A program made the translations under genes and the position numbers. From NCBI GenBank assembly GCA_008632985.1, contig QPGO01000058.1, forward strand, positions 62,001 through 126,000: 64,000 bases of DNA. Direction: 5' to 3'. Shown piece after piece: positions 2,608 through 42,000 of this stretch (the first letter of the stretch is position 1; each line of letters starts with the position of its first letter). Source of the DNA: Psammoneis japonica (taxonomy: Eukaryota). The notes below the pieces were generated by a model. The model did no database searches. It saw only the letters and a list, made by a program, of their open reading frames with translations, and was not told the DNA's origin.

Positions 2608-4188
2608 ATGTGGTGGCAAGCTTTTGTGGTCGTTGCGACGGCCATGCCTGTTTGTACTATGGCCCGAGCTGCAAGACGACCCATGATGATGAGATTTACG
2701 CATGCGGTTCCCGTACATTCCGCTGGAAGAGATGACGACGCCTCATCACCCGGTATGGTTGTAAACTGCTCGGAACTCTACTTTACACAAGAGATGGATC
2801 ACTTTGCTCCGTCACCAGCGACGTTTGAACAACGCTACTTTCTCAACGATGAGCATTACCGAACGGGCGGTCCCATGTTTTTTTACCTGGGCAACGAAGC
2901 AGACGTGACGCTCTATGTCAATGCGACAGGTCTCATGTGGGAAAATGCCAAAGAGTTTGGTGCGCTTGTTGTCTTTGCAGAACATCGATACTACGGAAAG
3001 AGTCAACTCTTTCCAAAGGACCCCCTGTCGGACCTTGGCTTTCTTTCAACGGAACAGGCAATCATGGATTATGTGGTTTTGATTTCTCATTTAAAAGAGG
3101 TATACCGTTTCGAGGAAGCTGACGCAGTTATTGGTTTTGGGGGTAGCTACGGTGGGATGCTGGCATCATGGGCTCGGTTCAAGTATCCTCATGTTTGGGA
3201 TGGATGCATCGCGGGGAGTGCACCTATCGTATCCTTTGAAGGGATGGACCCTCCTGTACCGCCAAACTTTTATGCGGAAGGAGTCACCTATGATGTCACT
3301 CAGGCAGCTGGAGCAAGCGAATTCTGCGAACAAAACCTGCGCAAACTCTTTGCAGGAGAAGGGCTCGCTCATGTGGACCCCTTGCTTATTCGCTCTGCCT
3401 TTCAGATTTGCAAGGATGATGATACTGCTGATGAAGATCTGCCCTTGAGCGTCACCGAATGGTTGGGCGAAGCACTGAGCTACATGTCCATGGGGAACTT
3501 TCCCTATCCGAGTACATACATTCTGAATGGGGACGGGCAATTGCCAGCTTTTCCCGTTCGTGTGGCCTGTGAGAACTTGGCCAAAGACATGACTGGCAAT
3601 GATCAGATGGAAGCGTGGCTGGCGGGTTTGGCAGCGTTTGCAGGCGTGTACTACAATTACACGTCTGCGCTGGAGTGCAACACCCTTGCAGCACCCGTCA
3701 ACAACGAGAGCATGATTGTAAACACGTTGTGGAGCTATCAGTACTGCACTCAAATCTTTCAAATATTTGGGCAAACCCCCGACGATCACGACATGTTCTC
3801 GGATCACCCCTGGGACGGTGATGCAACAGCTGCGAACTGCGTGAGGCAGTACGGCACTTATCCGGACCGCCTTCACTTTGCATTGTCCTACGGCAATCCT
3901 AGCGACTGGGCCCGTGAAGCGTCAAATATTGTCTGGTCTCAGGGAGAGTATGACCCATGGAGAGGCGGTGGTGTAGTTGAAGAACTGAATGATTCGCTCG
4001 TTGCGGTTGTAATCGCAGAAGCTGCTCATCATTTGGATTTGTTCTTTTCCCATCCGAACGATACTGATGCTGTGATATCCGCTCGCAAACTGGAAATGGA
4101 CAATGTGCGAAAGTGGATCAAGGAGAAGAAGGAGAGAGGAATGGCGCACGAACCGAATGCAAGCCTCCAAGGAAATCGAATCGCGTAG
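2608..4188 (+). CDS. PRCP: Serine carboxypeptidase S28 (lysosomal Pro-X carboxypeptidase-like), secreted
   Basis: Hydrophobic signal peptide. Motifs QEMDHF, FFYLGNEA, EHRYYGKS, nucleophile GGSYGG, DPW and AAHHLDL. 526 aa, intronless. Confidence 0.92.
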   Translation: MWWQAFVVVATAMPVCTMARAARRPMMMRFTHAVPVHSAGRDDDASSPGMVVNCSELYFTQEMDHFAPSPATFEQRYFLNDEHYRTGGPMFFYLGNEADVTLYVNATGLMWENAKEFGALVVFAEHRYYGKSQLFPKDPLSDLGFLSTEQAIMDYVVLISHLKEVYRFEEADAVIGFGGSYGGMLASWARFKYPHVWDGCIAGSAPIVSFEGMDPPVPPNFYAEGVTYDVTQAAGASEFCEQNLRKLFAGEGLAHVDPLLIRSAFQICKDDDTADEDLPLSVTEWLGEALSYMSMGNFPYPSTYILNGDGQLPAFPVRVACENLAKDMTGNDQMEAWLAGLAAFAGVYYNYTSALECNTLAAPVNNESMIVNTLWSYQYCTQIFQIFGQTPDDHDMFSDHPWDGDATAANCVRQYGTYPDRLHFALSYGNPSDWAREASNIVWSQGEYDPWRGGGVVEELNDSLVAVVIAEAAHHLDLFFSHPNDTDAVISARKLEMDNVRKWIKEKKERGMAHEPNASLQGNRIA

Positions 4189-5875: not shown

Positions 5876-6449
5876 CGTTGTGACGCTCTGGCTCGTAATT
5901 TCTGGTTTGTGGTTTCTGATCCTTTTTTACTTTTTACGTGAGAATTAGTACTGGATAACGTACAGTAACGTAGATTGCGTAACTCGTACGTTTCGTACTG
6001 ACTCATTGTAAATGCGACACATGAACAATAACGGCTTTTCCTAAACACGCTAACGCCACGTAGCATCACTATCTGAACATATCGTTGAAACTCTCTAAGA
6101 CAAAATTTCGTTTTCCCATCAACGCTCCAAAGCTCTTATTGATTCATATAACATTTATGACTTATTCAGTTTTTATTGATTTTAAAAAGAAATTTAAATT
6201 CATATAACCCTTATGGGTAAATGATTCAATGAATGTCGCCAGCGTGTCTTCGCTCGTCCTTCACCCGTGTCTCACATTTTGTTTACACGGACATGGACAG
6301 GCATTTTGGCGCGAACAAATCCTTGCAAACGGAATTCTTCAAACGCGATCCTGCCGCAATAACCGGTCATGCTGCATTCAACGGTGCGTGGCGGATTATC
6401 ACTCCAGATTCAGAGCTGCAGCAGACGAGAGTACGCCATCTGTACCACC

Positions 6450-8852
6450 ATGCCATCATCTAGACGTAAAGATGAGAATGGCCTACCCCCCGTGAAAAAG
6501 GGCGGGATCCCGTTATGGGTCTTTCGCTTGATTCGCTGCTTGCTGTGTCTATGCCCGTTCGATGCATATGTTATGTTTCCGCTCATGATATTAATGGGAA
6601 TTGCGGTCTTGGGTATTGTTGCGTCCTTTGCCAACAAAGAGGAAGGGCGACTGGCGTATTGGATCCCCATGGGTGTCTTGGCTTTTCTGTTCATGGCGCT
6701 TTGGCTGAAATGGGCCAGGACGCATCCTCGTGTCCCTCAAGAAGACGATGTCGCCAAGTTTTCAATTCGCGACGAAACTTGTCCACGAGCACCAGTCGCG
6801 CCTCTGCGGGGTGAACTTGTGGCCAAGGGTGACTCGTGGTTCAAGGACGAGCTTGGAAGGAGGATGCTTTTGCGAGGAATCAACCTACAGAGCGGCACAA
6901 AACTTCCTTTTTATCCTGAAGATCAACGAGGCACGCATCTTGCCAATGAAAATTTTGAGAATTATGGCAGCGTCAGTTTTGTGGGTCGTCCCTTTCCACT
7001 CGAAGAAGCGGACTTGCATTTATGCAGGCTTCGAGCCATGGGGTTGACCTTTTTGCGTTTTCTCGTAACGTGGGAGGCGATTGAACACGAGGCTCCCAAT
7101 GTGTATGATTTGGAGTATCTCGACTATTTGAAGAAATTGGTGCAGAAATGCAACGCGCATGGATTGAGCCTCTTTATCGACCTGCACCAAGATGTTTGGA
7201 GTCGCTGGACAGGAGGTGACGGTGCTCCTGGTTGGACTTTGGAAAAGGTTGGATTTGCGCTAGACAAGCTGGATGACAGCGCGGCTGCCATTACGCATCA
7301 AAAGTGGAAAGAAGGCGAGTTTCCAAAAATGGTTTGGAACTCCAACAACTCGAGGTTGGCTGCAGGTACCATGTGGACGTTGTTTTTTGCTGGTAATGAC
7401 TTTGCACCCAAGACAAAGATTGATGGAGTCCCAGTACAAGAATACTTGCAAAGTCATTTTATCGCAGCAATGGCTATGGTGGCCAAAACCCTCAAAGATG
7501 AACCCAACGTGGTTGGCTTTGACATTCTCAATGAACCCTCGGTGGGCTTTGTTGGAGTAAAAGACGCCCGTGATATCGGGCCGAATTCATACTTTGTGGG
7601 CTACAGGGTAGATCCGTGGTCTGCCATGAAAATGGGAGCTGGAGAGACTTGCACAGTTAATTTCTTTTCGAGTTTTATGCTTTACGATGGAAAACGCAAG
7701 CTCAACACGGACAATGTGTGTGCCTGGAAGAATGGGCCAGAGTCGTGCGTCTGGCTTGATAATGGCGTTTGGAAGATGAACGAAAACGGCAAGCCTCAAC
7801 TGCTCAAGCCATTTCACTTTGCCACCAATCCAAACACAGGAGAACCGATTGAGTTTGTTCACGATTATGGTGTCCCATTCTGGCTGGATGCAGCCAAGGC
7901 GATTCGAGAGCACATGCCAGATGCAATCATCTTTGCCGAACCGATTTTAGATATGACTGATCCGAGCAAGGAAGAATTTCCCATGCTTACGGACGAGCAG
8001 GTTGGTGCTGGCTATGTGTGGGCAAGTCACTACTATGACGGAATGACACTCATGACAAAGACCTTTAGTAGATATGCTGGCTTGGATTCAGTCACGCAGA
8101 GGCCATCAATAGGTATGGACTCCATCGCGAACTCGTACGGAAAGGGCATTGCGGTTTCAAAGAAGGAGGCCGGAAGTATGGGCACAGGTGGTTGCCCCGT
8201 TCTGATTGGTGAGTGTGGAATCCCCTTTGACATGGGCGCAGAAGGCCTGCGGAACCCTCTGTTTTTCCGTGATCGAAAGAAGAGGGCTGCATTCCAGACC
8301 GGTGATTTCTCCATGTGCACCAACGCTCTCAATCGGACAATGGAAGCACTGGACGTGGCTCAGGTTTCGTATACGATATGGTGCTACAATCCCGACAACA
8401 CCAATAAAGATGGTGATGGGTGGAACGGAGAGGATCTGTCCTTGTTCTCTCGGGATCAATGTGTTCCAGGAGAAGAGGACGACCTATTCAACGGTGGGAG
8501 GTCTTTGCTTGCTGCCATTCGACCGTATCCTCAGAAAGTCGCCGGAGATGTGGATCGTTTCTCGTTTCAACTCTACCGAAAGAATCGACGATTCGATTTA
8601 GTTTTCAACGCCGACCAAAGTCTCGCCACAAAGGAAACTGTGATTTTTCTTCCGAAATATCAGTATCCTCACGGTGTTGACGTTCGAATCAAGAAGGGAG
8701 AAGGGTCGTACGAGATCGATTGGGATTTGCAGACTCTAACGTACACTCACAGCGAAGAAAGCACCGTCAACCATCTCGTCATTACAAAGCTTCCACATCC
8801 AACCCCGAGTGAAGGGGGGGCTCCTGATTTGGGGCTGCAACCAGTTCAATGA
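6450..8852 (+). CDS. Glycoside hydrolase family 5, endoglycoceramidase-related/glucosylceramidase-like, with N-terminal TM helices
   Basis: LRGINL, FVGRPFPLEEAD, WEAIEH, DLHQDVWSRWTGGDGAP, acid/base NEP, nucleophile GECG, DGWNGEDLS and IRPYP. Two hydrophobic segments near the N-terminus. First ATG at 6450. Confidence 0.88.
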   Translation: MPSSRRKDENGLPPVKKGGIPLWVFRLIRCLLCLCPFDAYVMFPLMILMGIAVLGIVASFANKEEGRLAYWIPMGVLAFLFMALWLKWARTHPRVPQEDDVAKFSIRDETCPRAPVAPLRGELVAKGDSWFKDELGRRMLLRGINLQSGTKLPFYPEDQRGTHLANENFENYGSVSFVGRPFPLEEADLHLCRLRAMGLTFLRFLVTWEAIEHEAPNVYDLEYLDYLKKLVQKCNAHGLSLFIDLHQDVWSRWTGGDGAPGWTLEKVGFALDKLDDSAAAITHQKWKEGEFPKMVWNSNNSRLAAGTMWTLFFAGNDFAPKTKIDGVPVQEYLQSHFIAAMAMVAKTLKDEPNVVGFDILNEPSVGFVGVKDARDIGPNSYFVGYRVDPWSAMKMGAGETCTVNFFSSFMLYDGKRKLNTDNVCAWKNGPESCVWLDNGVWKMNENGKPQLLKPFHFATNPNTGEPIEFVHDYGVPFWLDAAKAIREHMPDAIIFAEPILDMTDPSKEEFPMLTDEQVGAGYVWASHYYDGMTLMTKTFSRYAGLDSVTQRPSIGMDSIANSYGKGIAVSKKEAGSMGTGGCPVLIGECGIPFDMGAEGLRNPLFFRDRKKRAAFQTGDFSMCTNALNRTMEALDVAQVSYTIWCYNPDNTNKDGDGWNGEDLSLFSRDQCVPGEEDDLFNGGRSLLAAIRPYPQKVAGDVDRFSFQLYRKNRRFDLVFNADQSLATKETVIFLPKYQYPHGVDVRIKKGEGSYEIDWDLQTLTYTHSEESTVNHLVITKLPHPTPSEGGAPDLGLQPVQ

Positions 8853-10796: not shown

Positions 10797-13411
10797 ATGT
10801 TACAGTCCTTCCAAAGAAAAAGTACGAGAAGGCATGGTGTAGCTGTCTTCGCTCGTACAGCACGACGAACAACAAGCGCTACCTCTAGGCTCCATCACGG
10901 CTTGTCGAGACCGCGGCTCGGTGCCGCTGACAATCGTTGTTTGACATCTCCTGTTGCGACTTGTGAAAAGAGCATTTTCGATAGATCAGCGTTGATACAA
11001 ACACGTCCACTCTCGTTATTGAGCTTATCAGGTATGGATCATGACAATAACAGCTCTCCCCGTTTCAGATCAACTCAGGTTCGAACCAAGGTTTTTGTTT
11101 CTCGGCACAACACGACACTGAATGTGACGTCCGCGCAGATTTTAGAGCAATGTTCCAACCATGGCATTTCCACTGCAGATGCTAGAACGTCACAGTCACA
11201 CGTTATTCTGAAAGAATGCCCCTTTTGTCCGAAACCAACCAACAACAAGGCCGATAATTTGTACAAGCTTTACATTGGGATTGGGGGAGGCGCTTACTTT
11301 TGTCATCGTTGTGGTGCCAAGGGGAGTTGGTATGATTTTAAAATGAAGTTTGGCGGTTATGATGTTGTACAGGCAACCGATAAGGGAAGCTCGACTCATG
11401 CAGCGTCCTTGGCACAAGAGGCGAACTTTTCTTCAAACAACATGCAGTCGCGCAGTAGTAGGAGTCCCAGCAATATTCGATGCCTACCAATGCCAGAGAA
11501 GCGTTTACAGGCAGCGTACATTACGAGACTTATGGATCAACAAAACAGAGCTTCCCAAGAGGGTCTCCGGTACTTGAATGACGTTCGGGGTCTTAACCAT
11601 CAGACGTTGCGGAAATATGGTGTCGGACTCGGAGTTTACAAGTTCCCATCGAATGATGCAAGCTTGCCACCAGGACACATGTTTGACGCAGAGTGTATTA
11701 CGTTTCCGTGGATAATGCGAGCTAGTGATATTGCAGAACAGGAAGGCTTACGTGGAGCGACATTTGAATGGAAAGCTCAAGAGGATCAAGAGAGCGAAAG
11801 CTCGAAGGAGTCGTCGTCCGTGGACGAGTCTGCCTCAGATGACGCAAAAGGACCGTTTGTGACTCGGAGGATCAAGGCTCGCGCTTTGAACAACAAGGCG
11901 TGGCAACGTTTGGATCCAGCTGGAGGCGGCTGGGGGCTCTTTGGGTATCACACGGTTCCTCCGGATGCTACCGAGATTGTCATTACAGAAGGAGAATACG
12001 ACGCCATGGCGGTCTATCAGGCTACCGAGAAACCCGCAGTGTCGCTCCCCAACGGATGCCGATCTCTTCCCGTCGAGGTGTTGCCCTTGCTCGAGAAGTT
12101 TGAAAAGATTTACCTATGGATGGATAATGACGGTCCTGGACAAGAGGGAGCGGAGAACTTTGCCAAGAAGCTCGGTTTGAACCGGTGTTTTATTGTAAAA
12201 CCGTCAACGACGGGGGCGCACGAACCCAAAGACGCCAACGAGGCGCTGCTCAAGGGAGTTGATATTAAAGAAATGTTGGATCGGGCTAGCATAATGCCAC
12301 ATGAACGAATCATGCAATTTACTGAGCTTCGATCACAAGTGCTGCACGAAATCATTAATCCTCAGAAGTATGTCGGAGTGGCGGTGCCTAGTCTTCCTGC
12401 CTTTACCAGCATTGTAAAAGGCTTTCGACGCGGAGAAATGACTGTATTGACCGGACCAACGGGATCTGGAAAGGTAAGTTACGTAATTGGTCGATGAAGA
12501 AAATGCTACCATGTGATAGTGACTCGCTCACTGGTTTAGTATCATTCTAGACAACCTTTCTTGGACAAATGTCTTTGGATTTTGCAGAACAGGGTATCAA
12601 CACTCTGTGGGGTAGTTTCGAGATCAAGAATACCCGCCTTATGCACAAGCTTCTCCAACAGCATTCCAAGGCGCCACTTCCGGTCGGACAAGCCGAGTCT
12701 ATTGCAGCTCTTGAAGCTGTGGCAGACCGCTTTGAACAGTTGCCGCTCTTTTTCATGAAGTTTCACGGCGGATCCGACGTGGATGATGTCTTGGACGCCA
12801 TGGACTATGCAGCCTATGTTCACGACGTGGAACACGTGATTCTCGATAACTTGCAATTCATGATTACGCGCAACACCGGCTTTGGGTCTTTTGACAAGTA
12901 CGACATTCAAGACATGGCGATTGAAAAGTTTCGAAAGTTTGCAACCGAAAAGAATGTGCATGTGACACTCGTGGTGCACCCCCGCAAGGAGGATGAAGGG
13001 GCCAAGCTCGGTATTTCGTCCATTTATGGCAGTGCCAAGGCGACGCAAGAAGCAGATACTGTTTTGATTCTTCAGAATGACGGAAGACGAAAGTACTTGG
13101 AAGTCAAGAAGAACAGATTTGATGGAACTTTGGGATATTCTCCGCTACATTTTCAACACGCCAGTGGTCGGTATACGGAGACACCCGAAATGGCATCCAA
13201 AGCTTCGCCAAAGACATCGAAACCACCTTGTCAACCAGCTGCTTCTGGATCGTCTCAACCTAGCGCCACCCAACCCGTGGCTTTCGTTCCCCGTTCTACC
13301 GGTAGTTCCGTTGACGGACAGCAGGCAACATCCGATCAAGACAAGGATAGCGAAGTTGAGAATCACTGGGACTCAATATTATTTGAGTCAAATGATCCAG
13401 AAGAAAACTGA
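10797..13411 (+). CDS. TWNK: Twinkle-type (T7 gp4-like) primase-helicase, probably mitochondrial; exons 10797-12473 and 12551-13411
   Basis: Zn finger CPFC...FCHRCG and TOPRIM ITEGEYDAM / WMDNDGPG / PKDANEAL. Walker A GPTGSGK|TT is reconstituted across GT-AG intron 12474-12550. ILDNLQF, LVVHPRK, GSAKATQEAD, KNRFDG. Arg/Ser-rich N-terminus. Confidence 0.95.
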
Positions 13412-13611: not shown

Positions 13612-14169
13612 CTACTTGCTAACGGCCTCCTTAAAGGCGGTGTAGGCTTTGAACTTGGGGCGGTCCTTGGCTGGAATCGACAATGGTTCGCCCGTGCTTG
13701 GATTTCTGCCGGTGCGCGCCGAAGAACGTTTTGACTCGAACGTACCAAAGTTGGCGATGCTAACACGCTTGTCTTGTGACACGGACTGAAGAAGATTGTA
13801 AGAAAATACAGCATAGATGGGGTTAGACGGCAGCATGGAAAACGGACTACCGTATCAAATACGGTAGATCATAGCTCTGTCTCTACTGTTGCCAAAACCA
13901 TAACATAAGAAATCAGCAGAGTCATTCTCGCTCTTTCTTACCTCGGAAATCGTATCAAAAAGAGACGCAATGATTCGACTCGACTTGGCTACAGTCAAGT
14001 CATTTTGTTCTGCAATCACCTTCGCCAGATCCTGACGGGTTACAACCTCCTTCTTCTGCTTAGCTTTGGTTACCAAACTCTGCCTCCAGGTCCAGAAGCT
14101 ATGACGATTGGTTGTCTTTGCCTTCTGGGCAATGCCTTTGAGCGTAGCGGCAACCTGAAGACTCGCCAT
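13612..14169 (-). CDS. HU: Bacterial histone-like HU/IHF DNA-binding protein with N-terminal extension; exons 14169-13942 and 13785-13612
   Basis: TRQDLAKVIAE...SLFDTISE|SVSQDKRVSIANFGTFESKRSSARTGRNPSTGEPLSIPAKDRPKFKA is the HU signature. Phase-0 intron GTAAGA...TTCAG at 13941-13786. Confidence 0.92.
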
Positions 14170-14600
14170 GGTGAAATCTTGACGTTGTTTCTGTCTTGCT
14201 CTGTCAAAACTGCCAAACCGTTGTCGCAACGCTTGCTCGGAATTTGAAAAGTTTAGCCTACAATGTGCACAAGTTAAATTTTGAATCGGAAAATAAATCA
14301 CGTAGGGCCCTACCGGTATGGGAGTAGAAATGACATTTTCAGTTTGATGCGTCTGTACGTCATCATTGAGCGGCGTAGCAATTCGCTCGATCGCGCGCGC
14401 GCGCACACTCCGCAAAGGGCGCACATCGCCCATCAGAGATCGGCCGGTTTTGAGGTTGACACTGGCCATGGCGGCGAGAAGCGAGAACAGCCTGTGCGAG
14501 AACGGCGTCGTCAAGCTGAGGGACGAGTGATCCTTTCATAAACTATGACTAAAATCAACCGTATGTTTGTTATGCTTTAAAAACTGAATGGTCAATAGCC
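14170..14600. promoter_or_regulatory. Probable bidirectional promoter shared by HU and the POP-like gene
   Basis: 431-bp gap between head-to-head ATGs (14169 minus, 14601 plus). Contains a CG-rich core (cgcgcgcgcgcgc near 14392-14404). Confidence 0.5.
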
Positions 14601-17600
14601 ATGTTGAGGATTTTGTCTTCTTTACGCTCACCGACCGGTACGCAGTGCAGCTCTCGTGTTTTTCGGAGCACATTATTTGTTAATCAACACGCTCTTTGTT
14701 TTGAAGCATCAGTCCTCTCGAAATCAGCACGCTTTTCCACCAAGGATGCTCCTCTTAAAAGGGCATCCAAAGCATGGAAGAAAGGACTGGAAGAGTTGAA
14801 AAGTTTCAAGGAACAACATGGCCACGCAAGAGTGCCTTTTCGCTATGTCAACCACAAAACGGAGGGAAAGCCGTACAAACTAGGGAACTGGGTATCACGG
14901 CAACGAACACAGTACCGATTGTTTGTAAAGGGAGAGCCATCCTTTTTAGATAGTAAACGTATAGCGGTTCTGGAAGAGCTGGGCTTTCAATGGGATGCAA
15001 AGAAAGGGCCAGTAAAAGCAAAGCGGAGTGAGAAAGTTGTAAAATCATGGACAGAACATTACGAGGAACTGAAATTGTTTAAAGAAAAACATAGTCACTG
15101 TAACGTACAGGATGCGAAAGCGGATGCATCCTTGTTAAGATGGGTTCGGCAACAACGACGACAATACAAACTGCGGGTTCAGGGAAAGCCAGCTTCCCTT
15201 AAGGACGAAGATATTGTAGCTTTGGAGGATCTGGGTTTCATTTGGGATCCAAAGTATGCTGATTTGCACAATTTATCATGGAACGAATGGTTTGGGATGC
15301 TGCAGGAGCATGGCGACTGCTCTGTCCCAAAGAGAGAAGGAAACTTGCTTGGGAAATGGATCGCCTATCAACGAAGTATCTACAAGATCCTAAAAGAGGG
15401 CAACGTGATTGTTCCGTCCCTAACTCCAGAAAGGATTAAAGCCCTAGATGAACTCGGATTTAAATGGGAGAGTCCAAGGAACCGATCATGGGAGGATTGG
15501 CTGGAGATGTTGCGACATTACAAGGCTGAACACGGCGACTGTCATGTGCTTGCCAGTTCTGGACCATTGGGCTGTTGGGTTGCTCGGCAACGAGGCTTTT
15601 ACCGTCAGCGCCAAAACGGAAAACACACACCTCTTACAGATGAAAAGATACATCAACTCGAAGACCTGGGGGTGAAATGGGTGGCATCCAACGCAAAACG
15701 CGAGACCAAGTGGAACGAACGTTTGGACGAACTAAGATTATACAAACAAACGCACGGGAACTGTAGAGTACCTACAACTGCTTCAATTGGCGGGCTTAAA
15801 AACGAGCATGCACAACTTGGAATTTGGGTGAAATATCAGCGTGAGCAATACAAACTCTTCAACGAGGGTAGACCAACGTCCATGACTAGTGAGCGGATTG
15901 CAGCTTTGGAAGACTTGGAATTTGAGTGGGAGCTCCGGCCACATGAATCCAGGTATAAAGAGGTGTGGAAGGCGTGGCGAAGACAACTGTTGCAATATAA
16001 GGAAAAGCACGGGGATTGTAGGCCGTCAAGGGAAGAAGGGAACCTCGCTAAATGGATAGACCAACAACGATACCAGTATCACTTGTGGAGACGAGGAAAA
16101 GAGTCGTCAATGAACTCTCAAAGGATTGCATCTCTCCTGGAGCTAGGGTTTGAATGGGATAATCACAAACATGAAGCTCCCCGTCAAACATTGAACGGTA
16201 CCTGGAATCCAGCAGATCCACTGGTTTGGACTAGTTCGTTCGGGAGACGCTCTGCCAAAAGTGAAGAAATGCTTCGTCGTCTTGTGCAGCTTCAGCCGGG
16301 TGAGCTGGGTTACTTTGACGTATCCGAAACTGTAGTTCCAAGTGTTTCTATTGTTCGAACCAAAGACCAGGCAAGAACTGCTTTGGACCGCCTAGTGAAG
16401 TCAAGTCCAAGCGTTCTTCATGCATGCGACGCGAAAGTCATGGGCATTAATCTGAAGAAAGAAGGCCCGGTTGGCAATGGATACGTAACATCCATGACGA
16501 TATATTCTGGTCCTGATTTTGATTATGGCTTGGGTGATGGACCTGGAACAACTCTCTGGATTGACAACCTTGACGAATCTTATGGTCTTGTCAGGGAGTT
16601 CACATCATGGCTGGAGAATGATCGGCATGTTAAAGTATGGCACAATTATGGGTTCGTTCGACATTTGCTTTGGAACGAAGGGATCGATTGTCATGGTTTT
16701 GGTGGTGACATTATGCACATGGCGCGCCTTCAAGACACACGGCGAGCTATCACCGGCAATCGGACTGGTTACAGTCTTGACGGGCTTCTATCAGCTATTT
16801 TAAAAGAATGGAAGCCTGCCATGATGGACGAGTTGGCATCCAGACGACAACAAGTCATGGTGAAAGAACAGTTATCCCGCCAGTCGAAGTCATGCAGCGT
16901 GATCCTAGATTTCGCGAAAAGTTCATCAAGAATTTTTCTTCTGACACCAGAGGCATATGGGGGCTACGGAACGAGCTTCAGCGAGAGTTGGAGAGGATGC
17001 CTTGGTTCGGCAGTCACAACATGTATGACTTCTACTCAATGTATATGAAGCGGTTCGGGGTAGTTTTGACGGAAATGGAAAGACGGGGTATCAGGTTGGA
17101 TACAGAAAACTTGATGTCTCGAGTCAAGGAAGAACTCCAGAACGATCGAAAGATGCACGTTATGGAATTTCGAACATGGGCGTCCTCAAAGATCGGTCCG
17201 AACGGTTGGACTCTTGATCCAGAGGACCCAATGCAGCTTCGTACTTTTCTTTTTGGGGACTCTGGGGAACAGACTACCTTGAATCTTCCATACGAGGACG
17301 TGCCTTTTGAAGATATGAGTGATTTACAGCTTCGAGCACTCTGCAAGAGTCGGGGTCTTGACATTTCAGGGAAGAGACTAGAATTGCTTATTCACTTGGG
17401 GCTAGACTCCACCGAGGCGTGGAGTAGGATCCGTGTCAACGAGTCGGCTCACCAGGAAAGAGAAAAACGATTTACTGTCCAGCGGTCAAGGTTGCAAGAA
17501 GATAAATGGGACTTGCACTTGAACGAGCTTCGTGAGTACCTCGCCGCACATGGACATTGTCACGTCCCAACTAGCGCGGGCTCTTCTCTTTCAAATTGGG

Positions 17601-19006
17601 TCTCTCGTCAACGACATGAATACTGGCGCCGTGCGGAGGGCAAATCTTCATCGATGACAGACGAGCGAATCGCAGCGTTGGAAGAATTGCGCTTTGAATG
17701 GGTATTGAGAGAATCGACCGCAGCAGAGATCAGGGCTCCGAGTGGCGACAGATTTGATGTAGTCATTACTAGCCTTGGAATCCCAGCTGAGAGGCTCGAC
17801 AGCGATGGCGAAGCAAGCGTTTCTACTGACGTACTGCGAAAGCTGGCTGGCAATCCATTCCGAGGAAAATACGGATCGGTATGTATTTAACGTGACGTCC
17901 CGTTGGCTTGTTGCAAAGCACCCATCGTCGCTTCACTCAAATGTACTCTATTCGCTCGTACTGAACCAGGCTTACGACTTCTTTGGAGGTGGAAAGGAAG
18001 GCCACGATGCCTGCGTTGCATTGTACAGTCTTTATGAAATCGACGTGATCAATCGTCACAAAGCCAATTTTTGGACTCACCTCGAGTCTGTGGCTGATGA
18101 ACAAAGTCGAGTTCACTGCTCCATCAATTTAAACACCGAGACCGGAAGAGTTCTTTCGCGTCGACCAGCTCTTGAGAACCAACCATCACACTTGATACGG
18201 AAAGTTTTCAATGCATCACCAGGAAACAACCTTATTGTTGCCAACTACCGACAGCTGGAATTTCGTCTCCTTGCAAGCATGTCGAATTGCGATTCCATGA
18301 TTCGTTTGTTCCGAGAAGGCGGTGATATACACGCCAGGACCACTTACGACATGTATGACCATGTCAAAAAGGCTGTTATGAGGAAAGGTGCTTGTTAGAG
18401 TGGGACTCGAGCCAGGGCAAGCCTAAACATCCTCTTCTTTGCGACATGTTTCCGAATGAACGTCAAATTGCAAAGGATCTGAATTTCCTCGTTCTCGCTG
18501 GTGAACCCGTGAGTACAATCTCCCTAAAAACTGGTCTACCACAGACAACAGTATCAAGCATACTAAAAACCTGGCACGAATCTTATCCAGAGACATTGGT
18601 GTGGCAGGCGGAGAAGAAATACTTCGCAAAAAAGCACGGGGTTGCACGAACCCTCCTTGGACGATACCGGCTCTTGCGAGATGGCAACGGTGCGGCGATA
18701 TCACCCATTTCCGATCGAGTAAGCATGACAACACCTATAGAGGGCAGCGTTGCTGACATTTCCATGTTGGCAATGCTAAAACTTAGTGAAAGCGACCTTC
18801 TGAGAAGACTGGGATGGGTGTTGTTGATGCAAATGAACAATGAAGTTCTTTTGGAAGGACCGAAGGAGACGGCAGAAGAGGCCTTATTTGAAGTTAAGCT
18901 TTGCATGCAAGAACAATGGGGCGTGGCGCTGAAAAATTCTCCTGTGCCAATAGAAGTCGATGGAAGTTGCAAACATTCAAACTGGTTCGATGCCCAGGAG
19001 TTCTGA
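14601..19006 (+). CDS. HA-repeat / SAP / POP-type family A DNA polymerase-like protein with degenerate catalytic motifs; intron 17879-17969; two apparent 1-bp frameshifts (~16833, ~18377)
   Basis: Six N-terminal HA repeats (W..L..YK..HG.C.V...LG.WV..QR....L..LGF.W). POP exonuclease region HACD..V..I.LK..GPVGNG, KVWHNYGF, MHMARLQD. PPVEVMQRDP, EMERRGI, a SAP motif, a 7th HA repeat, YGS|AYDFFGGG, RVHCSINLNTETGR, GGDIHART and LLEGP. Confidence 0.85.
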
Positions 19007-19064
19007 GCAGAATAGTAAATCTCGGTAGCACAACTCCTTCGCCCATGCTATGATGACGAATATC

Positions 19065-19679
19065 TTATTTCTGATCGCTTGAAGAGTTCACCCACTTTGT
19101 GAGCGCCTTTAAAGCCCCCATACGTTCTACTCCGTGTTGTCGTGCTGTTGCTAGGGCCTCTTCTGTTGCTTCCTCAGGTGTGAGCTTGTACCGGTAAACG
19201 AGCCAACCCGCGGCAACCCGACCAGATCTGCCCATACCGTGGGTGCAATGCGCCACAGCTCGTTCTTCCCGTCTTTCAATTTCACCTAGCTTTGTCATTA
19301 TCAAATCAAACGAACCTTCTTTACTAAATGGAGTGTGATGAACATTCAATTCAGGAGATGCACTCTTGTATGCTTCCAACAAGCCGGGAGGTTGGTAATC
19401 CAACAATTCATCTTCCCCCAGCAAAACAAACACGTGCTGGATCTTGTGCTTGGAAATGGCGCGAACCCATTCTTCTACAACCCTTTTCGTATCCAACTTG
19501 CAATTTCCGGGAGGATCGCCCCCAGGTCTCTCGCACGTGAAGAGCACGGTGTCTCTTGCGGAAGCTGGGCCAAAATTGCAAAGACAGTCTGGTTTCTTTG
19601 GCGTCACCACAGTCTCCTCGCCGTTCATCTCCATAGTTCGATCTCCATCTTGAAGTTTGATGCCGGTAGTGCTACTCAT
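19065..19679 (-). CDS. Dual-specificity/tyrosine protein phosphatase
   Basis: CX5R active-site motif AHCTHGMGRSG. 204 aa. Confidence 0.88.
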   Translation of the reverse strand: MSSTTGIKLQDGDRTMEMNGEETVVTPKKPDCLCNFGPASARDTVLFTCERPGGDPPGNCKLDTKRVVEEWVRAISKHKIQHVFVLLGEDELLDYQPPGLLEAYKSASPELNVHHTPFSKEGSFDLIMTKLGEIERREERAVAHCTHGMGRSGRVAAGWLVYRYKLTPEEATEEALATARQHGVERMGALKALTKWVNSSSDQK

Positions 19680-37701: not shown

Positions 37702-40700
37702 ATGAAACACAGCTCTGTCCTACTTCTTTCCGGACTGCTCCTCTCTCCATCAACGTTGGCGAAGCGTGATGAGACTGTCAAGGAGCCTATCCGTGGATTT
37801 CTTCGCGGGCCTGAGGTGAGAATGTCGCAAAATGAGAGATGAGAATGGTACAATAAGTGTCAAGAGTGGAGTTCTCAAATAATTGTGTTCGATCGTGTCA
37901 ATGCTTTCCTACATAGGCTCGAGGAGAGGAACCTCCGGTCAATGACACGGACTACACTGACATTGCGGCGAAAGGGTCGGTCTACTCCAAAGACCCCAAG
38001 TTGGCTTTTCGTAGCCTTTACGATTCCAAGGTTAAAGGCTCGGATGGACTGTTGCCAGCAGACGACTCGAGCACTTTTACAACCCGTGCCACTGCTGCCT
38101 CCAAGCTAAGGGCAATCAGCACTCATGATGCTGTGAGAAGTGCGGTGTTTGGTGACGGCGCTGTGGCAGGTACAGGCTGTTTCGCAATCGTCAACAAACC
38201 CATTGAGAAGAACTACGCCGTCCCTAATGTCGAATCTGCCTTTGCAAATCTCGCCCATCAAGGAGAGTGGCAAGGTTTCTACCTAACCAGACACGAGAAA
38301 GACGGGAAGGTATTCGAGTTGTTCCCTGGGAATGCCAAATCTCATGTTCAGGGAGTCGCTCGCTCCCCGCGTACTGGTCAACCACCGGTGTTATACGTTT
38401 CCGTCAGTGCCCACGACACTTACCCTGATGGAGCCTATGGTGGTATCATGGTGGTACAGATGAACTCGCGTGAAGAATATGGTGAGCGAATGGGCTCCAA
38501 TCGCCTGCAGAAACTAGGCGGTGGTGATCCCCTGCAGAAAGTAGGTAAGATGGACGGAGACACCATGTTCACTTTGCCAGTCAAGGGGCCCTTATACATG
38601 CACGAGAGGAGGCTGGACAGAGTTGTCGATATCATCGAGACAAATAATGGCCACCCCTCTGGCATGTCAATGGTTGGAGATATTCTTGCGGTTCCCATGG
38701 CTGGGTTTGTCCATTTTTACGACTGTAGAGACCCGCTCAAACCGTATCGGATGGATTACGCACTTCCACTCATAGATTCTGAGGGAAACAGAACCGGGGC
38801 ACAAGGTGTGGCAATCACGAAACTGCCACCGAGGAATGCTTCCGACCCAAATGATCATGGACGCTTTCTGGTGATAGGAATTAGTGGCGGTGGTGCCCAT
38901 TTGTACGTCTCTTACGATGACAAGACAAGCTTCTTCGAAGAGGATGGCAATACACAGGTTGGAGATATCTTCTCTGAGTCATGCGACGATGCAACAAAAT
39001 GCAGTGAATGGAATGACACCAACTCCATGAAAAAAGACAATACTGAATCGGGTGTTAAAGGCATCAGGTACCGGGTCTTTGACTCGCAGTACAAATACTT
39101 TGATTACGAGAGGTACCTGAAGAAGTTGAAGTTGATGACAAAGCATGGCAAAGTTATAGATGCCTGGCCGACGAAGAACGACGACCCTAAAGACCCAAAG
39201 AACAGCCGCAGATTCCAGGGCCTGGACTTGGTGAACCAGGTGGACGGCAGTAGTCCCGAGAGAATATACCTCATGGGCTCGGACAACTCAAACGAATGGT
39301 CGCCTGTACAGTTGTTTTTAGGAGATGACGAGATTTATCTACTGGAAGTAGTCAATGGAGAACAGGATTGCCATTACGAGACAAACGACCCAAACCTCAA
39401 CTTGTGTCACGGATTGAGCAGTCTGAGTCCCTCCAACGTGAACATTCGAGGTATTGATTACGCCAAAATGGGAACGCGTAGTCCAGGTCACCGACATTCA
39501 AAATTGCACATACCAGGCTCGGACTTCCTAAGCGAGATTAAAAACAAAATTCCAAAGGCTTTGCGCTGGATTCTCGATGTGGTAGATAAGTGCAAGCCAG
39601 TTGTTCAAGACCCTCCCCAGTTTGAATACATGTATCAGGGCTGGGCTGAGAATGATATGTGCAAAGCGTTTGATTTTAAATTTAAGATATGGTTTTGAAG
39701 ATAAGGACTGTGTATTGCCCATGTTCATCTCCAAGCGTTGGAATGCAAATTTCAATGCAGGTGCAGGGGCATTTGTCAGTCCTACGGGAGAGCTACTTTT
39801 CTATTGAGTCCATCATTATGCAGATGGTGAGCTTTCTTACGGTGCACATCATAATCAAAGGGGTCGATGGAAAGAATTCCGTAAAGACGATTTCGTGAAG
39901 ATGGCGGAGTTTTCGCATAGGACTGTGTCTTCTGATGGCAAATGCGGTGTGCCCAAGGTCAGTGTCGGTGGTCCCTACGAGATAAGAGAGGGTGAAACTC
40001 TGCAAATGGATGGCATTGTCTACACAGTTGAACCTTGGGTCAGAATGTATGCGAGCGGCAGTTATACTGGAATGAGTGTCATGATGGATTGGCGGCATCA
40101 ACATGAAGATGACTATGATGACTTCAGGAAACTCGATGGCGAGAAAGGCGAGTGTGATAAGAAGGAGTGGTATTGTTGCAAGCTTAAGGACAAAACTTAT
40201 GTTGATGGTGCCAGATGTAAGGATGATCTGGAAGGATTTGGTAACTGCATGTCTTCACTGAGCTGGTGTGGTCCTCCAGGTGCGAGACTGGTGCTTTGCG
40301 TTAATGAGTGGGACGACGATTACAACAATGAAAATGGTTGCGCTCCTCCTGATGCAGGTGACCCCCCTACGGCTTTCTGGCTCGATGGTACCGGTCAGAC
40401 GGAGCATGTGAGCATTGATACCGGTAGCAAAAAATACTTCAATGACAGGATCAAATCCGCGAGGATTATTTGGAGGGATGCCAACGGAGTGGTACTTGAT
40501 CCCCGCGACGCCGCCGGTGCTAGCGGTGACTACAGTTGGACCCTTGGTGGCGACGCAAAGGGCGCTTTGCAGGAAGATTCGACTCTCCCCTATCGTGTGA
40601 CATACACGGCGCGAGGTGTCTCCACCAACGTTGTCACTTTGACGTACATGCATTTGCAGAATGAGTATACCACCAGCACCACTATCACGGTCCACAACGC

Positions 40701-42000
40701 GCCGCCTTCGATTCTGGACTTTCGTGTTACTACACTGCCGCCGCATTATGAGGGAGTGCTGACATTCCAGGGTAAATGGAGCGACCCGGGTTCGTCTGAG
40801 GTGAACGTGACGATTGATTGGGGTGACATGACGAATGACTCCGCTGTTCTCACTGGCGAGCTTCCCTCCGGCTTGTGCCCCAATTCCTACAACGGCACGT
40901 TTGACTTCCCCCACGTTTTCTCGCCTGGAGCCTATAACGTCACTGTGTGCGTGACGGACGACCACGGCGCTGAGACGTGCGATGAACCTCTGCGTGTGAA
41001 AATCCTTCATGAATTCGTACGCTCCTGTGTGTACGGTAATTGCGATGGAACGACAATAGAGAAGGACTCCATTGTAGATTGCCAAGTTGCTCCTGGCATC
41101 GGCAGCTATGACAAGGTTGACATCAAAGAGAACGTTACCATCAAGGGCTCTCTCTTTAGCATCAAAGACAAGATTGACATCGACAAGAAGAGCGCTGTGA
41201 CAGGCAATCTGGACGCTCTTAAAGATATTACCGTTGGAAAAGAGTCGCACATCAACGGCGACATCGCATCGAGAGAAGTGGAGGTGAAAGAGTATGCCCA
41301 GGTGGAAGGTAGTATCACTGGTGCCAAGGTGAAAGTCGAGAAAAACGCTATTGTGCAGGGCGATATTGGAGCTCCTAATGTGGACATAGCTTCGACTGCA
41401 ACTGTCCATGGCATTATTCATGACGCTCCCATTAAGGCGCCAGATATCCCAATGATTTCATGGGGGTCGATGTGCATGATGAAATCCAGCAGCGACGAGG
41501 ACTCCAGCGACGACGAGGACTCCAGCGATGAGGAAACTTGCACTCTCAAGGAATACGCCACCCTTGTTCTGCACCCGGGCATCTACAATGATACGAAAGT
41601 TGACAAGTGTGAAACTCTGTTGATCTCTGCAGGCGAGTATATGTTCGAATCACTCAAGTTGGAAAAGGCGGCTACACTTAGACTGAATTTCTACTTGGGT
41701 CCCATCATTGTCAATGTGCAAAAGAATTTGGAATTCAGTGAGGGAGTGCAGATGATGAACGACTTCTCTGGCGTGGGTGAACCGAGTGACATTCTGTTCC
41801 GTGTTGAAGAGGGCGACGTGGAACTGAAGAAGAATGGCAATTTCCTTGGTACCTTTTGGACTCTTGGTGGTAGCGTGAAGATGGGCAAGAATGCCACACT
41901 AACTGGAGCCATGTACGCTGCCAAGAAGGTCAAGGTGGAAAAGGAGTCGTACGTTGTTGGCGTTCCTGCGTCTACTGACCTCTTTGAATTGCTCTTGTGA
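37702..42000 (+). CDS. Large secreted multidomain protein (bacterial-like N-terminal region, PKD/Ig-like domain, C-terminal beta-helix-like repeats); intron 37816-37916; frameshift ~39680 and in-frame TGA 39805-39807
   Basis: Signal peptide MKHSSVLLLSGLLLSPSTLA. Exon 2 from 37917 is in frame with ORF 38001-39698. The next frame runs NFNAGAGAFVSPTGELLFY*VHHY...VKMAEF into ORF 39895-42000, with WSDPG..VTIDWGD..PGAYNVTVCVTDD. Confidence 0.65.

Follow-up and report, generated by a model that had tools for sequence, protein, structure and literature searches.

A diatom POP-like family A DNA polymerase gene with replaced catalytic residues, seven HA domains and a maintained reading frame

The family A organellar DNA polymerases known as POPs are the closest known systems to the gene described here. 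Canonical diatom POPs, such as P0177 of Cylindrotheca fusiformis and P0228 of Seminavis robusta (annotated as 'polymerase I B, chloroplastic/mitochondrial'), share with it a similar N-terminal start of putatively mitochondrial type and the order of parts from the NWNP...GYFDV region via the exonuclease domain, the SAP-bearing thumb tip and the palm and fingers to the C-terminus. The gene, which we call dead-POP, lies at positions 14601-19006 on the forward strand of a 64,000-nucleotide stretch of the Psammoneis japonica genome (GenBank assembly GCA_008632985.1, contig QPGO01000058.1, positions 62,001 to 126,000), referred to below as the window. Unlike the canonical diatom POPs, dead-POP has the catalytic residues of both sites replaced, six helicase-associated (HA) domains in front, a seventh HA domain (HA7) instead of the second SAP-like stretch, a five-residue deletion beside the PNLQN motif, no signal peptide before its start and a branch about seven times as long. 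On balance, we lean towards reading it as an expressed pseudo-polymerase kept by selection, that is, an organellar protein on a POP scaffold that works without catalysis and is probably associated with DNA.

Several described polymerases resemble dead-POP in part. The mitochondrial POLIC of Trypanosoma brucei reportedly keeps an active polymerase domain, and it is said to be no POP and to have no HA array. What likens POLIC to dead-POP is that it is an organellar family A polymerase for which the accessible part of its description reports a polymerisation-independent role (bioRxiv 10.1101/730523). In APEX/PolA2, Taq and Bst Pol I, likewise of family A, the proofreading fold is kept without DxE-type residues, as described in the available portions of two papers (PMC10201439, PMC12926913), whereas the polymerase site is active in these enzymes and predicted to be dead in dead-POP. 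ImuB and the inactivated Y-family homologues (iPolY) have a polymerase fold without catalytic residues and form a non-catalytic part of a DNA-synthesis complex, according to the excerpts available from PMC12926913 and PMC6511836; they differ from dead-POP in belonging to another polymerase family, in being bacterial, in having no HA or SAP domains and in having an established partner complex. Dead scaffold polymerases are known in other families (ImuB, family Y), whereas inactivation in family A is described in the accessible open-access text only for the proofreading domain: the 2026 survey of bacterial polymerases, in its available sections, has inactive Y-family homologues and, in family A, only exonuclease inactivation (PMC12926913).

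For diatoms, the available part of Hirakawa and Watanabe 2019 cites one POP gene each for two model species (PMC6523293). No mention of SAP, HA or inactive POPs was found in the accessible portions of that paper, of Harada et al. 2024 (PMC10877234) or of Czernecki et al. 2023 (PMC10201439), and searches of open-access text, exclusive of supplements, for PF03457, for the helicase-associated domain in diatoms and for SAP in organellar DNA polymerases returned nothing relevant. The original prediction, made from the letters of the locus and their reading frames, knew of no description of this architecture, and these searches of open-access text agree with it.

Four overlapping or abutting reading frames make up dead-POP, which comprises two exons, one intron and 1438 codons once two frame breaks are bridged (Table 1); there are zero stop codons within these 1438 codons when the alignment is read with X at the breaks. 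The encoded protein consists, in order, of a presequence, HA domains 1 to 6, the POP N-terminal region with the exonuclease-like domain, a thumb whose tip insert carries SAP and HA7, and the palm and fingers. We compared the interval 14401-19200 with contigs of three public runs (X1, X2 and X3), all from one sample and one study, none listed as RNA, and possibly the source of the assembly. The contigs of X3 gave no coverage of this interval. X1, which appears to be DNA-like given that its longest record is 315 kb, provided one unspliced 5447-nucleotide contig across the whole of it, whereas the X2 contigs end exactly at the intron borders, and one of them spans 14457-17879, starting ahead of the HA array and reaching into the thumb. 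Single bases are missing from the window at 16832/16833 and 18377/18378, and the contigs of X1 and X2 both restore one frame with an extra T and an extra A, respectively; an intact allele therefore exists. The original prediction had placed frameshifts at about 16833 and 18377 and proposed reads across both as a check. Both breaks are present, and the contigs carry one extra base at each; the frame changes are nevertheless three in number, the third being a GT..AG intron.

Introns do not explain the breaks at 16832 and 18377, as neither place has a GT..AG pair of plausible size and the difference from the contigs is exactly one base. We also rejected programmed frameshifting and RNA editing, the extra bases being present in the DNA-like X1 contig. 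The two 1-base deletions in the window may be consensus errors or a real null allele, and the contigs are compatible with either. These two single-base errors or variants are also what could be cited for an assembly or annotation artefact, whether through chimeric fusion of a POP gene with an HA-repeat gene or through some other mis-assembly. We consider this highly improbable, since the X1 contig covers 14401-19200 in one piece, the X2 contig runs unbroken from 14457 to 17879, and HA6 and the POP core sit in one uninterrupted reading frame.

The remaining indels are all in frame, namely three extra bases in X1 at 14671, which add one Leu to the presequence, and 12 extra bases in X2 behind 15303, which complete helix 1 of HA domain 3 and give the HA consensus L..Y...HG (read by hand). 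Being common to the window and X1 and absent from X2, the 12-base HA3 deletion is a real allele, and the overall pattern of differences between window, X1 and X2 fits two haplotypes sampled at random. Short GT..AG introns in the window genes and the diatom origin of the closest protein relatives, as given by their source names, indicate a nuclear gene of a diatom-type alga.

The catalytic residues were audited by aligning the protein to 34 full-length POPs of diatoms and to Taq. The Pfam family DNA_pol_A matches the open reading frames (ORFs) 17775-18398 and 18392-19006 with 73 bits each, these being two halves of the domain. Both metal-binding Asp residues of the polymerase site are Asn, one in motif A and one in motif C. 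The core of motif A reads ANYRQLEFR here and ADYGQLELR in the relatives, and that of motif B RQIAKDLNFLVLAG here and RRKAKTLNFSIAYG in the relatives. In the exonuclease-like domain, three of the five catalytic residues are lost. In Klenow-type enzymes, mutating either catalytic Asp abolishes activity. From the two Asp to Asn replacements and the three lost exonuclease residues, the protein is predicted to be unable to polymerise or proofread, and DNA polymerase activity is predicted to be absent. Two contact motifs are altered besides (Table 1), and the changed Asn and Gln of the motif at 18725-18757 occupy what we take, from the Klenow literature, to be minor-groove contact positions. Counted by hand, 6 of the 12 functional residues considered in the palm and fingers are lost against a background of 34%, and we draw no claim from this count.

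A DNA polymerase or exonuclease that is still active with unusual catalytic residues could point to the retained Glu of motif C, the Glu of motif A (QLE) and the Arg, Lys and Phe of the O-helix, but it would have to work with Asn in place of both metal-binding Asp residues, with changed motif C His, motif B Tyr and PNLQN, and without the ExoI Glu, the ExoII Asp and the ExoIII Tyr; we regard it as extremely unlikely. A sequence check found motifs A, B, C, ExoI and ExoII where the original prediction had put them. That ExoI reads CDAK where DTE is expected is correct as to T>A and E>K, although the first Asp is in fact kept. Similarly, its remark that motif B has 'no YG' holds for the Tyr, which is Ala, and fails for the G, which is kept along with the R, K and F of the O-helix. 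It was silent on the loss of the ExoIII Tyr (YSCYD to NFSSD), which emerged from the alignment with the 34 POPs.

Among the 133 closest database relatives examined, ExoI, ExoII and motifs A, B and C are canonical in all proteins that cover each region, and an HA-like array was found in none. A maximum-likelihood tree of 39 rows places the protein inside the diatom POP clade, with a Shimodaira-Hasegawa-like approximate likelihood ratio test (SH-aLRT) support of 100 against four non-diatom POPs and with no firm position within the clade; its end branch measures 1.59 against a median of 0.22 (about sevenfold). Identity to canonical diatom POPs is 53-58% in the exonuclease region, where the median among the canonical proteins is 70%, and 49-54% in the palm and fingers, where it is 78%; across the comparisons with diatom POPs as a whole, the range for the exonuclease region is 53-64%. 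By its sequence, the gene arose through duplication of a diatom POP. The view of the locus as a catalytically dead POP paralogue, already put forward in the original prediction, is supported by the residue audit, the placement in the clade, the intact 1438-codon allele and the stop-free frame. A metagenome scan returned three loci, of which L001 and L002 encode the canonical ADYGQLELR and L003 is 27% identical. A word-based search with the C-terminal piece returned 13 proteins and missed the diatom POPs, and is thus insensitive.

At the N-terminus, an in-frame stop at 14547-14549 lies 17 codons upstream of the start, and there is no upstream signal peptide. The protein begins MLRILSSLRS, similar to the M[MIL]RR start that canonical diatom POPs have internally, behind a signal peptide. 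From this resemblance, the upstream stop and the missing signal peptide, we infer a mitochondrial rather than a plastid destination. In many canonical diatom POP models, the internal M[MIL]RR start comes after a signal peptide with an AFAP-like motif, and other models begin at the second Met; to judge from the protein models, this pattern looks like dual targeting by alternative initiation.

The Pfam profile PF03457 (HA) matches six stretches in ORF 14601-17048 with 298.4 bits (cut-off 28.4), and the profile search likewise recovered the seventh HA domain, the SAP motif and DNA_pol_A, as the original prediction had them. The seven HA units are 33-53% alike, and all of them keep the HA consensus. 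A query with the thumb piece, which includes HA7, retrieved 9835 proteins at E<=0.001; HA-array proteins make up most of the best 150, and the thumb itself is matched by five of the best 150 listed, all five of which are canonical diatom POP fragments. The HA-array proteins of diatoms and bacteria are like dead-POP in their tandem units of about 65-75 residues, and they differ in that a POP or DNA_pol_A domain is absent from all 20 of them among the 25 proteins scanned with Pfam, whereas dead-POP has one. The sole solved HA relative found is 2kta, a 'Putative helicase' (E 0.017). To our knowledge, the HA domain is very abundant in diatoms, and we know of no function for it.

The sequence before the thumb-tip insert aligns with the Bst Pol I chain as far as residue 243 or so, and the sequence after it from about residue 283 onwards; in the alignment of the diatom POP profile with Bst Pol I, about 258 profile positions fall between these two residues, at the tip of the thumb. 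The SAP match covers profile positions 2-26 of 37 in ORF 16808-17890 and corresponds in the alignment to the first SAP found in canonical diatom POPs. Canonical diatom POPs (P0172-P0268 and others) carry a thumb-tip insert of about 200 residues with SAP domain(s), and the consensus alignment contains two SAP-like stretches in it. As the canonical proteins already have this insert with SAP, the SAP is ancestral and HA7 alone is new in the insert. The original prediction was thus right to locate SAP and a seventh HA in the thumb, but the SAP is nothing special to this gene. An AlphaFold2 model of the residues encoded by 16835-17878, built from a 24-row alignment, reached a predicted local distance difference test score (pLDDT) of 73.4 and a predicted template modelling score (pTM) of 0.42; Foldseek found no match for it in the PDB at E<=0.001, the best rows being at chance level with a SAP domain at rank 3, and phmmer searches of the thumb and exonuclease pieces against PDB sequences gave nothing useful.

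Across the gene, 84 of the 282 columns that are invariant in all 34 diatom POPs have changed (30%) without a stop. Simulated random drift over the 902 codons of POP origin, continued until 30% of the amino acids had changed, produced 14.7 stops on average, and 0 of 2000 runs stayed stop-free; over the 344 palm and fingers codons, taken to 34% change, 4 of 3000 runs did so, which argues that even the C-terminal domain was kept translatable. In the palm and fingers, 55 of 161 invariant columns are lost, and the replacements at these columns are milder than random single-base changes, with 63 of 5000 shuffles reaching the observed mean, and both real indel polymorphisms are multiples of three. 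In the exonuclease region, 62 of 76 invariant columns are kept and 14 changed, and less conserved columns changed more; the old constraints appear to be partly kept there. With its catalytic residues lost and its frame maintained beyond what drift allows, dead-POP is probably a pseudoenzyme as far as alignment and simulation can tell, and the same data support the view that for most of its history it was something other than a pseudogene in simple decay.

Several observations weigh against our interpretation of dead-POP as a pseudo-polymerase kept by selection, and part of them would suit a functionless, drifting, lineage-specific duplicate that is transcribed and is open in one allele by history, the assembled haplotype with its two frameshifts and damaged HA3 being already null. 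In the palm and fingers, the loss is similar in invariant columns (0.34) and in variable ones (0.18-0.37), as if all old constraint had been lost, and this evenness over the conservation classes suggests that the old polymerase constraints are largely gone there. The coding polymorphisms, 5 synonymous and 13 non-synonymous out of 18, are neutral-like (expected synonymous share 0.22, binomial p 0.36), and some of the differences between window and contigs behind this count may be assembly errors. No orthologue with the same substitutions was found in the protein database or metagenome searches; since the protein itself is absent from all of these, the databases evidently do not include the organism, and the lack of orthologues is weak evidence. 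The window allele combines the two 1-base deletions with the four-residue HA3 deletion and, if real, may mean that one haplotype is already null; other long frames in the window, such as the Twinkle-like gene described below, are unbroken, which speaks mildly against a high general indel error in the assembly. Support for expression is limited to one 58-nucleotide spliced contig and the shape of the X2 contigs, and this contig is a hint of expression only, as X2 is unrecorded as RNA and the runs come from one sample. In addition, a canonical POP in the same organism is assumed, and the changed DNA-contact motifs weaken the idea that the cleft may still bind DNA.

A drifting duplicate, however, would have had to escape stop codons in a way that no simulated run achieved over the whole POP-derived part and only 4 of 3000 achieved in the palm and fingers, and it is also at odds with in-frame indels, mild replacements, an HA consensus kept by all seven units and an intron that is still spliced in the X2 contig. 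Any loss of function would for these reasons be very recent, and we give the drifting duplicate a minority chance.

Table 1. Parts of dead-POP, their coordinates in the window, and differences between the window and the contigs of runs X1 and X2.
Feature	Position	Strand	Remarks
Exon 1	14601..17878	+	Start codon 14601; continuous only with one base added behind 16832
Intron, 91 nt, GT..AG	17879..17969	+	Canonical; 17878 directly followed by 17970 in a 58-nt X2 contig
Exon 2, palm and fingers	17970..19006	+	Stop codon 19004-19006; continuous only with one base added behind 18377
Frame break 1	16832..16833	+	Window GAGTTGG; X1 and X2 contigs have one more T
Frame break 2	18377..18378	+	X1 and X2 contigs have one more A
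N-terminal presequence-like stretch (MLRILSSLRS...)	14601..14774	+	No acidic residue among first 34 residues
HA domain 1	14775..14996	+	Pfam PF03457
HA domain 2	15048..15248	+	Pfam PF03457
HA domain 3	15279..15470	+	Pfam PF03457; window allele 4 residues short in helix 1
HA domain 4	15489..15683	+	Pfam PF03457
HA domain 5	15711..15932	+	Pfam PF03457
HA domain 6	15966..16160	+	Pfam PF03457
POP-specific N-terminal region and 3'-5' exonuclease-like domain	16197..16997	+	Alignment with 34 diatom POPs
ExoI HACDAKV (relatives HACDTEV)	16419..16439	+	T>A, E>K; first Asp kept
ExoII WHNYGFVRH (relatives WHNYGFDRH)	16638..16664	+	Asp>Val
ExoIII NFSSDTRG (relatives YSCYDAEG)	16931..16954	+	Tyr>Asn, Asp kept
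Thumb-tip insert, approximate borders	17252..17749	+	Profile-to-Bst Pol I alignment and diatom POP alignment
SAP motif	17315..17401	+	Pfam PF02037, 26.2 bits, cut-off 23.9
HA domain 7	17507..17704	+	Pfam 65 bits, ORF 16808-17890; at place of second SAP-like stretch of canonical POPs
DNA-contact motif RPALENQPS (relatives RPNLQNQPALEKDKY)	18162..18188	+	PNLQNQP>PALENQP; adjoining 5-residue deletion
Motif A LIVANYRQLEFR (relatives LIVADYGQLELR)	18231..18266	+	Catalytic Asp>Asn at 18243-18245; G>R, L>F
Motif B / O-helix ERQIAKDLNFLVLAGEP (relatives ERRKAKTLNFSIAYG)	18458..18508	+	Only Tyr>Ala; G, R, K, F kept
MTTPIEGSVAD (relatives INTPIQGGAAD)	18725..18757	+	Asn>Thr, Gln>Glu
Motif C LLMQMNNEV (relatives LLMQIHDEV)	18821..18847	+	His-Asp>Asn-Asn at 18836-18841, Glu kept
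Differences from window common to X1 and X2			5 substitutions, 2 indels
Differences from window in X1 only			9 substitutions, 1 indel
Differences from window in X2 only			7 substitutions, 1 indel

Directly upstream of dead-POP, on the same strand, lies a Twinkle-like primase-helicase gene (10797-13411, forward strand; Toprim_2 and AAA_25 matches), whose Walker A motif is interrupted between GPTGSGK and TTFL by a 77-nucleotide GT..AG intron (12474-12550) and which is otherwise intact. It is followed by an HU-like gene on the reverse strand (13612-14469; Bac_DNA_binding) that contains one intron and encodes a long extension at the N-terminus, and whose first ATG (14469) lies about 130 bp from the ATG of dead-POP in divergent orientation. 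The adjacency of the Twinkle-like gene, the HU-like gene and dead-POP gives three organelle-DNA genes in a row. Convergent with the 3' end of dead-POP is a dual-specificity phosphatase-like gene (19065-19679, reverse strand; CDKN3 and DSPc matches), and one X2 contig that starts at 17969 extends 486 bases past 19200. Elsewhere in the window, an S28 serine carboxypeptidase gene (2608-4188) and a GH5 cellulase-like gene (6369-8852), both on the forward strand, are intact with no frame breaks, and a 701-residue frame (39895-42000, forward strand) has a bactofilin match of 42 bits and a weak ice-binding-like match. Rfam yielded no match in the window.

A history for dead-POP as a retained pseudo-polymerase can be proposed as follows. 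A POP duplicate would have lost the carboxylates of the polymerase site and three of the five exonuclease catalytic residues, and would have gained the six-unit HA array between presequence and POP core as well as HA7 beside the ancestral SAP. Its rate of evolution would since then have been about sevenfold that of its relatives, with no closure of the 1438-codon frame. Most likely the full-length protein would be made, at whatever level the gene is expressed, imported into mitochondria via the presequence and active there in a non-catalytic manner, and its HA and SAP modules, together with the remaining POP surfaces, may bind nucleoid partners or organellar DNA. It may serve as the nucleic-acid-binding scaffold or regulator that the original prediction proposed. 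A more specific version, in which a mitochondrial pseudo-polymerase holds organellar DNA with its seven HA domains and SAP, modulates or tethers a Twinkle/POP replisome and is perhaps co-regulated with the HU-like gene, is tentative, and we think it less likely than not.

Dead-POP is, from what its sequence allows us to say, probably a pseudoenzyme derived from a polymerase, known so far from a single genome. It also calls for caution in annotation, as automatic pipelines would label such a gene a DNA polymerase, or a pseudogene on account of two breaks that the read-derived contigs do not share. If the replisome version were true, no family A polymerase before dead-POP would have been known to be retained solely for a non-catalytic part in a nucleoid or replisome, and it would offer the first functional clue to the large expansion of HA repeats in diatoms. 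A POP copy that has both sites disabled and its frame maintained would bring a non-catalytic participant into the maintenance of organelle genomes in a major group of marine algae, and it would also offer a well-defined setting in which to study the HA domain.

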